Made by a program: the position numbers and the translations under genes. From a virus (lineage: Duplodnaviria; Heunggongvirae; Uroviricota; Caudoviricetes): a stretch of 9,188 bases of DNA. Positions 3,384 to 3,769 of the stretch are shown here, one piece after another. Where the stretch lies: the IMG/VR virus record IMGVR_UViG_2711768069_000008; one strand, given 5' to 3'. Below the pieces are notes generated by a model. The model saw nothing but the letters and a program-made list of their open reading frames with translations, was not told the DNA's origin and searched no databases. How positions within the stretch are numbered: position 1 is the first letter of the stretch; every line of letters starts with the position of its first letter.

Positions 3384-3406
3384 AAAGGGCAGAAATGCCC
3401 TTTTTT
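3384..3406. terminator. bidirectional rho-independent terminator shared by the cassette and the convergent Q gene
   Basis: GGGCA-GAAA-TGCCC hairpin (3387-3400, GNRA-type loop) extendable by A:T pairs; followed by TTTTTT on plus and by TTTTTAAA on minus. Starts 1 nt after the Q stop (TAG, complement of 3407-3409) and right after the gene B stop (3381-3383). Confidence 0.7.
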
Positions 3407-3769
3407 CTACTCCATTTCAAGTTTAACATCCAGCATTGAAAGGCATCCATCAATAAACCCTTCAGCCATCTGTATCTCTATACGTATCAATTTCTCATCT
3501 TTTTTGCGAGCTCTTGCAAGCTTTCTTTTCGAGATGCCATACAGGTAATGGGCCACAATCAAAGAATGCTCGTACGGTTTTCGCTTTTTAAGAAGAGCAA
3601 GACAACCTTCAATAATTAATGCATCACTATCTGAACAAGCCTGACGTGTTTTGCTTGTATAGGGAAGAAGCCCTTTAAACCCAGCAGCTATAGGAGAATA
3701 GTCTACTCCTGAACTATCACTCGCCGCCCATGCTCCCCAACGATCCAGAACCATTTGAATATCACGCAT
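3407..3769 (-). CDS. antitermination protein Q (short Q family, resembles DLP12 QuuD/YbcQ type)
   Basis: Translation MRDIQMVLDRWGAWAA...KGLLPYTSKTRQACSDSDALIIEGCLALLKK... matches my recollection of the roughly 125-aa Q antiterminator family. The ORF track begins at a TTG (3784); the ATG at 3769 (MRDIQM) is the likelier start. Confidence 0.7.
   Translation of the reverse strand: MRDIQMVLDRWGAWAASDSSGVDYSPIAAGFKGLLPYTSKTRQACSDSDALIIEGCLALLKKRKPYEHSLIVAHYLYGISKRKLARARKKDEKLIRIEIQMAEGFIDGCLSMLDVKLEME

Follow-up and report, generated by a model that had tools for sequence, protein, structure and literature searches.

A convergent two-gene cassette and a predicted common terminator between an antiterminator Q gene and its putative late promoter

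In the lambda and phage 21 papers cited here, the PR' unit directly follows the Q gene (10.1101/651190). In the window, by which we mean the whole 9,188-nt stretch of Caudoviricetes DNA that was analysed (IMGVR_UViG_2711768069_000008), the stop codon of Q is followed by a hairpin and by the end of a cassette that is transcribed towards it, which raises the question of what this hairpin does and where the late promoter served by Q is located. An earlier note on this DNA had suggested that the cassette was inserted between Q and its target, or that Q-modified polymerase must read antisense through the cassette. Considering the evidence below, we think it very probable that the hairpin is a terminator common to Q and the cassette, that the cassette sits in a hypervariable cargo slot, and that an intact late unit lies on the minus strand at 1838-1925. 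The layout of the parts (Table 1), the junctions, the 933W homology, the way in which the palindrome varies with Q type and the wide occurrence of the slot were observed directly.

Table 1. Features of the locus, with coordinates in the window
Feature	Position	Strand	Basis or remark
Antiterminator Q, Q21/Q933W family	3407..3769	-	PF06530, phrog_79 and cdtI annotation
Predicted bidirectional intrinsic terminator, common to Q and the convergent cassette	3382..3406	both	Repeat, fold, stem energy
Cassette segment with own upstream region and terminator, 1479 bp	1932..3410	+	Missing from empty-slot relatives
Gene B, 147 aa, four hydrophobic segments, phrog_8552	2940..3383	+	Hydropathy
Gene A, 313-aa DUF6731 protein	1995..2936	+	Predicted RexA-like fold
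Cassette upstream region, presumed own promoter	1925..1994	+	Alignment; back to back with late promoter
Candidate Q-binding element, palindrome GCGGTCCGC	1910..1918	-	At the position of the 933W annotated -35 and spacer
-10 hexamer TAATCT	1893..1898	-	Same position as TATCAT of the 933W annotated pR'
Near-invariant core GTTAAGAGTGGTTACTTCGCCAC	1870..1892	-	Initial transcribed region and qut equivalent
tR'-like intrinsic terminator, CCGC CGTCGA GCGG and T6 (1839-1844)	1839..1858	-	Scan; homologous to the 933W annotated terminator
First late-unit ORF, 75 aa, phrog_331	1513..1740	-	
DNA methyltransferase	304-1362		After the 75-aa ORF
tRNA genes	188-263 and 31-107		After the methyltransferase

The hairpin between Q and the cassette

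The Q protein matched the PF06530 profile over its full length (E 5.2e-52) and phrog_79 ('anti-termination protein Q-like'), with a distant match to the Q21 structures 6P18 and 6JNX. Its start is likely the ATG at 3769 (MRDIQ...), from which the 120-aa form annotated in phage cdtI (NC_009514) is read, and not the TTG at 3784 that opens the longest ORF. The stop codon of Q (TAG, 3409-3407, minus strand) and that of cassette gene B (TAA, 3381-3383, plus strand) are separated by a gap of 23 nt (3384-3406), and the hairpin occupies this gap between the 3' ends of the convergent genes. A repeat search returned an inverted repeat flanked by the two stop codons, with 100% complementary 10-nt arms at 3382-3391 and 3396-3405 and a 4-nt loop; the plus-strand letters across it are CAC ATT TAA AAAGGGCA GAAA TGCCCTTTTTT CTA. 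With the layout AAAAA-GGGCA-GAAA-TGCCC-TTTTTT, the stem stands between an A-run and a T-run and a U-tract follows it on each strand, as T6 (3401-3406) on the plus strand and as T5, then AAAT, on the minus strand. The folded RNA reached -13.4 kcal/mol on the plus strand (z -3.95, with none of 200 shuffles as stable) and -14.8 kcal/mol for a 56-nt segment of the minus strand (z -2.23, with 3 of 200 shuffles as stable). These results agree with the earlier note on the position of the hairpin and U-tract, right after the Q stop and facing the convergent cassette, and on its bidirectional shape. The hairpin is real, and only the word "strong" in that note overstated it, since the G+C core (GGGCA/TGCCC) is only 5 bp long (-7.7 and -6.8 kcal/mol); A and T make up the arms of this short predicted terminator.

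From these features, we predict that 3382-3406 is the common intrinsic terminator of the delayed-early operon that ends with Q on the minus strand and of the two-gene cassette on the plus strand, and that it would terminate transcription in both directions. A terminator consensus scan of the window did not list this hairpin, probably because maximal stem extension uses up the T-run, and the silence of the consensus scans here and at the late block was given no weight as evidence. In phage cdtI, the hairpin sequence is identical to that of the window, and phage vB_EcoS-733R5 has a hairpin at the same place in which the GGGC/GCCC stem and the A/T arms are kept and the loop is different and longer. 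In at least 8 cassette classes, a stable hairpin begins no more than 10 nt from the Q stop, and the C-terminal tails of Q vary among relatives exactly at the cassette junction.

In the mechanism that we propose, the hairpin would have two jobs, as it would keep cassette transcripts from entering Q antisense, and would also keep unmodified early transcripts from entering the cassette, and then the late promoter, in antisense. Antisense transcription of the cassette could come only from early transcripts that run through Q, and these would meet the hairpin first, although they would ignore it if the phage has an N-type antiterminator.

The cassette junctions and the late control unit

The segment 1932-3410 is not present in the close relatives Stx2_95 and ASU11, which are Stx2 phages. 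In such empty-slot relatives, window position 1931 is joined to 3411 with only about 21 nt between them, and in the blastn alignment with L001 the junctions fell at window 1..1931 (L001 1501..3446) and at window 3411 onward (L001 3468 onward). The comparison with cassette-less prophages proposed in the earlier note has thus given the junctions, and its claim that the cassette lies between Q and its target is supported, as the empty-slot relatives carry the pR'/qut/terminator block straight after Q, beginning 38 nt after the Q stop. The G+C content is 0.29-0.41 in the cassette segment vs 0.47-0.58 in the flanks, and absence from close relatives, sharp junctions and deviant base composition together mark the segment as an accessory cassette. 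A transposon origin was considered and rejected, with no direct or inverted repeats at the flanks. The cassette may have its own promoter within 1925-1994, where TTGCTA (1930-1935) aligns with TTGATA of phage 733R5 and is a weak candidate; the promoter consensus scan gave no site with at least 9/12 matches in this region. We infer that the cassette is expressed in lysogens.

Beyond the cassette, the late unit aligns with the stretch of phage 933W (AF125520) annotated as pR', qut and terminator, features which are 'putative' in the depositors' own labels. The annotated pR' of 933W is TTTACG-16-TATCAT. At its -10 position the window has TAATCT, which retains A and T at hexamer positions 2 and 6; three overlapping -10-like hexamers permit several registers, and the one homologous to the 933W annotation was used. 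In the Q sub-types read, the hexamer at this position is TAnnnT, with CAGTAT in Stx2_95 as the sole exception. The -35-equivalent position (1915-1920) is CCGCGG, with no match to TTGACA, and the promoter consensus scan of the window gave nothing at the late block, so the assignment of the late promoter rests on homology. The late start site is predicted at about 1886-1888. The qut equivalent ACTTCGCC (1872-1879) is homologous to the annotated qut of 933W, and the terminator, about 30-50 nt past the predicted start, is the first of the late transcription unit. The gene order after this unit matches that of Stx2_95 and ASU11, where stx2AB comes next, and that of cdtI, where the lysis genes come next.

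The core occurs once in the window vs 0 copies expected, and no second copy was found there with up to 3 mismatches allowed. It is present in 3213 of 5426 complete E. coli genomes, mostly as a block of roughly 56 nt, and its invariance across hundreds of loci points to constraint. A Q gene of PF06530 lies upstream on the same strand in all 105 core-bearing loci with a Q match; where no Q match was found, the DNA upstream of the core was in every case shorter than 1.9 kb. Within the core, the -10-like TGTTAAGAG is followed 8 nt later by TTCG, which fits the pause consensus T-N-Y-G (10.1101/2022.01.24.477500) at lambda-like spacing, yet lies too near the annotated -10; TGGTTACTT is an alternative candidate pause element. 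A polymerase pause in the core is therefore only suggested by its letters, and the exact start and pause sites are likewise putative. A literature search with the core sequence returned only a primer in PMC6328086, and the pR' comparison paper PMC6266700 contains no element-level map for this pR' type.

Lambda Q and Q21 are trans-acting (PMC6606751; 10.1101/651190). As a diffusible protein, Q would load on RNA polymerase paused just past the late promoter, so that 1.5 kb of additional DNA between Q and the late unit would carry no mechanistic cost. The modified polymerase would leave the cassette behind and go leftward, first through the small ORF, then the methylase and the tRNA genes, and into the late genes. 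The second suggestion of the earlier note, antisense reading of the cassette by Q-modified polymerase, is not supported, because the late unit lies beyond the cassette and points away from it and the core is present in a single copy. No pR'/qut lies within the cassette, a location which the note had also considered.

We weighed three other explanations of this arrangement. The prophage could be defective, with Q uncoupled from late transcription by the cassette and the block left as a relic, since the same layout is found in the E. coli K-12 prophage DLP12, itself defective, the structural genes are not within the window, and the late terminator and the middle tRNA gene are degraded compared with relatives (the terminator stem reaches -4.7 kcal/mol in the window vs -8.0 and -8.1 in DLP12 and 933W). 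However, cdtI has the same layout and is identical over the regions compared, the sequenced phage vB_EcoS-733R5 has a close variant of it, the core is invariant as described above, and the genes for Q, the O protein, the DnaC-like loader and the DnaB-like helicase have uninterrupted reading frames, so we regard a defective prophage as improbable. We also considered that the block might only mark where the early operon ends, as its terminator and 3' end, or might encode a small RNA, with the Q-dependent promoter further downstream, for example before the 75-aa ORF. The poor -35 in the block would fit this, as would the 100 nt between terminator and ORF (1741-1838), which are also conserved with Stx2_95. 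These 100 nt are not conserved in DLP12 or 933W, however, where the block is conserved; a search of Rfam with E up to 1 gave only two tRNAs and chance matches, with no family for the late block; the pR' and qut of the 933W depositors sit on the block; and the palindrome co-varies with Q type while the core is lost when the Q family changes (see below), all of which makes a downstream promoter very improbable. Finally, a late promoter could lie at or before the 3' end of Q, with the hairpin as the terminator that Q overcomes and polymerase running antisense through the cassette. In its favor, the hairpin comes directly after Q, where lambda has pR' and tR', the annotated pR' of 933W overlaps the last codons of Q, and the final 60 nt of Q contain weak -35/-10-like pairs on inspection by eye. 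This explanation is hardly credible, because the 933W-homologous unit with the only core copy in the window lies beyond the cassette, no promoter was listed at the 3' end of Q by the consensus scan, whose total count was below the shuffled expectation, and across relatives the end of Q adjoins 20 or more unrelated cassettes whose hairpins differ, which means that no conserved promoter/qut is present there.

Q sub-types, palindromes and known Q systems

The intact late unit beyond the cassette, which we favor, also offers a candidate for the site read by Q. In 101 loci that fell into four groups, the palindrome type tracked the Q sub-type: four Q sub-types pair with four palindromes (GCGGTCCGC, TTTACGTACGTAAA, GCGTACGC and TGTTATAACA) at the same position, with no exception, despite many different intervening cassettes. 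In the window, GCGGTCCGC is followed by an A/T run (1901-1909). We consider this palindrome a candidate Q-binding element to which Q may bind, a proposal drawn from sequence co-variation. Shiga toxin expression is controlled by the Q933W branch, for which the pairing leads to a direct hypothesis on Q specificity. In phage 1720a-02, Q is needed for Stx2 production and the palindrome type of the window directly follows Q (PMC6328086). A Stx2c phage that had been expected to carry Q21 turned out to have a lambda-type Q (PF03589), and TGAGCA-N2-TGAGCA was not found in it. In this phage another sequence stands in place of the core, while the terminator and the late ORFs are the same, which indicates that replacement of the core goes with a change of Q family.

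Phage 933W, like H-19B, shares with the window a PF06530 Q and a homologous pR'/qut/terminator stretch, and this common stretch includes GxTAAGAGTGGTTAC and the CCCGCC...GCGGG-T terminator. Both 933W and the window have a palindrome and then an A-run at the -35/spacer position, and tRNA genes downstream. In 933W, however, the Q stop lies inside the pR' spacer and there is no cassette, and its palindrome TTTACGATCGTAAA gives a good -35 (TTTACG), whereas GCGGTCCGC of the window gives no -35 match. The arrangement of lambda (Q, PR', qut and tR', with 6S RNA) and of phage 21 (Q21 and QBE) is similar in its promoter-proximal Q-loading element, the terminator soon after it and the late genes beyond. 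Lambda Q belongs to another family (PF03589). For Q21, the sole solved relative with which the Q-binding element could be compared, the bound element is a direct repeat, with TGAGCA present twice at -25 to -12 (PMC6606751); this repeat was not found here, where the candidate is an inverted repeat.

DLP12 has a convergent accessory gene between a PF06530 Q and the core and terminator, in the order quuD, nmpC porin, essD/rrrD/rzpD, and its core and terminator stand ahead of the lysis genes. It differs from the window in its porin cargo, with or without IS5, in a gap of 188 nt with two hairpins between the cargo stop and the Q stop, and in its Q sub-type and palindrome type. We take the lc porin locus of phage PA-2 to have a layout like that of quuD-nmpC-essD in DLP12. 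A passage of PMC7918800, citing Rueggeberg et al. (2013), places the lysis operon of DLP12 under Q control. Phage cdtI, which is named an inducible prophage in the title of its source paper, has the same arrangement as the window in orf52-orf55, and its hairpin and promoter regions were identical base for base where compared. In cdtI the next genes after the methylase are those for holin, endolysin and Rz, whereas the window has tRNA genes there; the replication modules also differ, and only about half of the window is covered.

The cargo slot and its occupant in the window

Among sampled prophages that share the core, 91 of 96 have a cassette between Q and the block, and in this Q sub-family the slot is commonly occupied. 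The idea in the earlier note that the locus departs from a canonical layout was not supported by these counts, nor by DLP12 and phage cdtI; layouts in which a convergent accessory gene parts Q from the late promoter are common and work, and the finding matters little by itself. At least 20 unrelated types were distinguished among the slot cassettes, and in 18 of 20 the main ORFs have the antisense orientation relative to the late genes. The edges of the slot are sharply defined, with the Q stop on one side and the pR' palindrome on the other. The cassette of the window is also found, at 87% identity and in the same slot, in phage vB_EcoS-733R5, and the same two-gene module occupies this slot in Yersinia and Pectobacterium prophages with 57-62% protein identity; together with the occupied state of most lineages, this suggests that slot occupancy is old. 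In Stx-type and related prophages, the slot is therefore a practical place for mining genes that lysogens express, which may include defence genes.

A broader view, to which we give slightly less than an even chance, is that the Q-pR' junction of Q933W/QuuD-type prophages is a dedicated and orientation-constrained cargo slot for lysogen-expressed genes, probably mostly anti-phage, that its occupant in the window is an unrecognised, sequence-divergent RexAB-like exclusion family (DUF6731 with a four-transmembrane partner), and that the Q proteins may read a palindromic element overlapping the -35, unlike the direct repeat of Q21.

Gene A is predicted to have a RexA-like fold, and its DUF6731 product is 99.7% identical in phage cdtI; a literature search found no paper that mentions DUF6731. 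Membership of RexA/RexB at the sequence level was looked for and dropped, as Pfam and PADLOC gave no matches and hhalign gave probabilities of 0.5% and 0.6%, and the support for the likeness comes from fold and gene architecture only. Like lambda RexA/RexB, the pair is borne by a temperate phage (PMC11077077); the lambda pair is next to cI, whereas the cassette is in the Q-pR' slot. Gene B resembles lambda RexB (144 aa) in size and topology, with hydrophobic segments at similar positions (about 2-20, 37-55, 78-108 and 116-134 in gene B; about 8-26, 42-66, 84-121 and 116-139 in RexB). With a RexA-like sensor and a RexB-like membrane partner, DUF6731 would gain a testable function. Apart from one Pectobacterium locus (L138) in which no partner was called, the gene B partner was kept in the E. 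coli, Yersinia, Pectobacterium and Vibrio loci examined.

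Location of the late control unit relative to Q and the cassette

Q matched PF06530 (E 5e-52), with a distant match to Q21 structures, which marks it as a true member of the Q21/Q933W antiterminator family (naming after 10.1101/651190). Q proteins bind DNA at the late promoter and load onto RNA polymerase paused just downstream, resulting in a terminator-resistant polymerase (PMC6606751; 10.1101/651190). Among phage records, Stx2a phage Stx2_95 and phage ASU11 matched best; neither has the cassette (the two-gene accessory segment), and in both Q runs straight into the late control block, which supports the proposal of the earlier note that Q and its target are separated by the cassette. 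The comparison suggested there for locating insertion junctions was run against L001, a cassette-less relative: window 1-1931 aligned with L001 1501-3446, and the window from 3411 with L001 from 3468, so 1932-3410 (1479 bp) is extra relative to cassette-less phages. The right-hand junction sits at the extreme end of Q, exactly where the C-terminal tails of Q proteins diverge. The G+C content of the cassette was 0.29-0.41, versus 0.47-0.58 in both flanks. No direct or inverted repeats flanking the cassette were found in a repeat search; the cassette was more probably exchanged through recombination in the conserved flanks than moved by transposition.

Features of the window, whose late direction is the minus strand
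Feature	Position	Strand
Replication protein O	7368-8282	minus
Tandem repeats in O	7781-7899	
DnaC-like loader	6479-7366	minus
DnaB-like helicase	5082-6482	minus
DUF968/HNH protein	3787-4782	minus
Q	3407-3769/3784	minus
Q stop codon (TAG)	3409-3407	minus
Hairpin inverted repeat	3382-3391 / 3396-3405	
Cassette gene B	2940-3383	plus
Gene B stop codon (TAA)	3381-3383	plus
Cassette gene A	1995-2936	plus
Cassette upstream region	1925-1994	plus
Late control block	1838-1925	minus
Late promoter	1893-1925	minus
Palindrome and A-run	1901-1918	minus
Late terminator	1839-1858	minus
75-aa ORF	1513-1740	minus
N6/N4 DNA methyltransferase	304-1362	minus
tRNA genes (two)	188-263 and 31-107	minus
Decayed tRNA-Arg copy	108-187	minus

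In phages without cargo, the block begins 38 nt after Q; its window counterpart reads ...ACCGCGGTCCGCAAATTTTATCTTAATCT GTTAAGAGTGGTTACTTCGCCACACAGCTTAAACCCGCCGTCGAGCGGTTTTTT. The 933W GenBank record gives, as features labelled putative by the depositor, a late promoter pR' (TTTACG-16-TATCAT) and qut (ACATTGCC), and also annotates a terminator (CCCGCCGATGCGCGGGTTTTTTT); all three lie on the stretch TTTACGATCGTAAAAATCTGCATATCATGATAAGAGTGGTTACATTGCCACGCAGTCGAACCCGCCGATGCGCGGGTTTTTTT, which is clearly homologous to the window block, and the Q stop codon of 933W falls inside the pR' spacer. This homology argues for a late control unit in the window, 1.5 kb from Q and directed away from the cassette. 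The core, the near-invariant part of the block, occurred once in the window with up to three mismatches allowed, and nothing like a late control unit was found inside the cassette.

The -35-equivalent position of the block is CCGCGG, and three hexamers resembling a -10 overlap one another, namely TAATCT, the invariant TGTTAAGAG and one within the A/T run. A TTCG located 8 nt past TAAGAG fits the T-N-Y-G pause consensus (10.1101/2022.01.24.477500) with lambda-like spacing, in a register that conflicts with that from the 933W annotation. The G+C stem of the late terminator spans 4 bp, with GCGGT in place of GCGGG (-4.7 kcal/mol, versus -8.0 and -8.1 in DLP12 and 933W), a variant recurring in several relatives of the window's Q sub-type.

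The earlier alternative, in which late transcription would have to run through the cassette and silence it, was not borne out, as the late unit lies on the far side and faces away. Q is diffusible, and the 1.5 kb between its gene and the promoter would be of no mechanistic consequence. Q-modified polymerase would start near 1886-1900, pass the late terminator and continue leftward, never crossing the cassette. The hairpin next to Q would end the cassette transcript ahead of an antisense run into Q and would likewise halt unmodified early transcription once it has passed Q. An N-type system is not seen in the window; were the phage to have one, early transcription could continue antisense past the hairpin.

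Pairing of Q sub-types with palindromes

Linkage of the core to Q, the pairing with palindromes, phage 1720a-02 and a Stx2c phage with another Q family all add support for the block as the place where Q acts. Core-bearing loci were gathered by scanning IMG/VR for the core. A PF06530 Q lay upstream on the same strand in all 105 loci having a Q match, and in every locus lacking one the upstream DNA was shorter than 1.9 kb. Across loci L001-L130, each of four Q sub-types was paired, with no exceptions, with its own palindrome and A-run just 5' of the invariant core: the QuuD/933W-like Q with TTTAC(G/A)..CGTAAA (TTTACGTACGTAAA; 49 loci), the window-like Q with GCGGTCCGC (28 loci, two with a one-base variant), a third type with GCGTACGC (19 loci) and a fourth with TGTTATAACA (5 loci). 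This pairing, which persists despite the many different cassettes between both partners, is the pattern expected of a Q-binding element, for which the palindromes are candidates, though linkage alone may account for it. These candidate elements are inverted repeats, whereas the element of Q21 is a direct repeat (PMC6606751). In phage 1720a-02, whose Stx2 production needs Q, the Q-deletion primer carries the window's palindrome type directly 3' of Q (PMC6328086).

Stx2c phage LC727889 (L141 1900-3641), with a lambda-type Q (PF03589), lacks the core; its terminator and late ORFs are those of the window, but a different promoter region precedes them. The core therefore travels with the Q family, and the late terminator is the edge of an exchangeable Q/qut module.

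The cassette upstream region and the late promoter are back to back, together occupying about 100 bp; roughly 10 bp separate the palindrome from a -35-like TTGCTA, which is TTGATA in phage 733R5.

The cargo slot and the hairpin adjoining Q

The slot, from the Q stop codon to the core/palindrome, was empty in 5 of 96 scanned loci with Q, all of the Stx2-phage type; the Q-core distance in the others was 620-3030 nt. Representatives among loci L003-L129 comprised at least 20 cassette types mutually without DNA similarity, the sole exception being the porin type, which recurred with and without IS5, and the main ORFs were antisense to the late genes in 18 of 20 types. Cargo annotated in RefSeq included a 339-aa protein, a 148-aa protein, a KAP NTPase and an OmpC/NmpC-like porin (DLP12-type prophages). 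Many of the cargo proteins have no assigned function. The quuD-nmpC-essD order of DLP12 in E. coli K-12 is the porin-cargo arrangement, and since control of the DLP12 lysis operon by its Q-type antiterminator has been reported (PMC7918800), a cassette of this kind evidently does not keep Q from working there. Phage cdtI (orf52-orf55) is arranged identically to the window over the compared regions, and phage vB_EcoS-733R5 has an 87%-identical cassette variant. As the arrangement is already known in K-12 and a published phage, separation of Q from its promoter by a cassette is an ordinary layout for this family; the slot, the palindrome pairing and a RexAB-like reading of DUF6731 are modestly interesting leads.

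The 23 nt separating the two convergent stop codons, plus two bases of the TAA, make up the inverted repeat, a perfect 10 bp with a GAAA loop, followed by T6 on the plus strand and T5 on the minus strand. The observation that Q adjoins a hairpin with a T-tract on each strand was thus confirmed. The plus-strand RNA folded at -13.4 kcal/mol (z -3.95, 0 of 200 shuffles as stable) and the minus-strand RNA at -14.8 kcal/mol (z -2.23, 3 of 200). The hairpin had been called strong; its shape is that of a terminator, but because the G+C core is only 5 bp (-7.7 and -6.8 kcal/mol), it is better described as a short predicted terminator with A and T arms. A consensus terminator scan of the window did not list it, probably owing to stem extension through the T-run. 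Since stable hairpins started 10 nt or less from the stop codon of Q in at least eight cassette types, several of them symmetric with A/T arms, a predicted bidirectional terminator adjoining Q is a recurrent design of the slot. The vB_EcoS-733R5 hairpin has the same position, a GGGC/GCCC stem and A/T arms, with a different loop.

Cassette genes and neighboring features

Gene A encodes a DUF6731 protein (PF20505; phrog_7651) and gene B a 147-aa protein (phrog_8552). PADLOC gave no match in the cassette, and no mention of DUF6731 was found in the literature searched. DUF6731 homologues are mainly limited to Enterobacterales and Vibrio. In Yersinia and Pectobacterium prophages the two-gene unit again occupies the slot that follows a PF06530 Q (in one Pectobacterium locus, L138, the partner gene was not called), other E. 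coli prophages have a 45-48%-identical pair in the slot with a different terminator, and in Vibrio the pair occurs in another context. Gene B has four hydrophobic segments positioned like those of RexB (144 aa), but profile comparisons of the cassette proteins with RexA and RexB were non-significant, and the position in the phage genome differs from that of RexAB. In predicted fold and in architecture, then, the cassette is similar to RexAB without being a member by sequence.

The tandem repeats in O (a 12-nt unit, 3.7 copies, and a 23-nt unit, 2.7 copies) resemble the iterons of a lambda-type origin inside O. Between the tRNA genes lies a decayed copy of the second tRNA-Arg of Stx2 phages, with a mid-gene 12-nt deletion, several substitutions and no ARAGORN call. 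The window tRNA called Met (CAT) by ARAGORN is annotated as tRNA-Ile in a RefSeq relative, and its 933W counterpart as ileZ.
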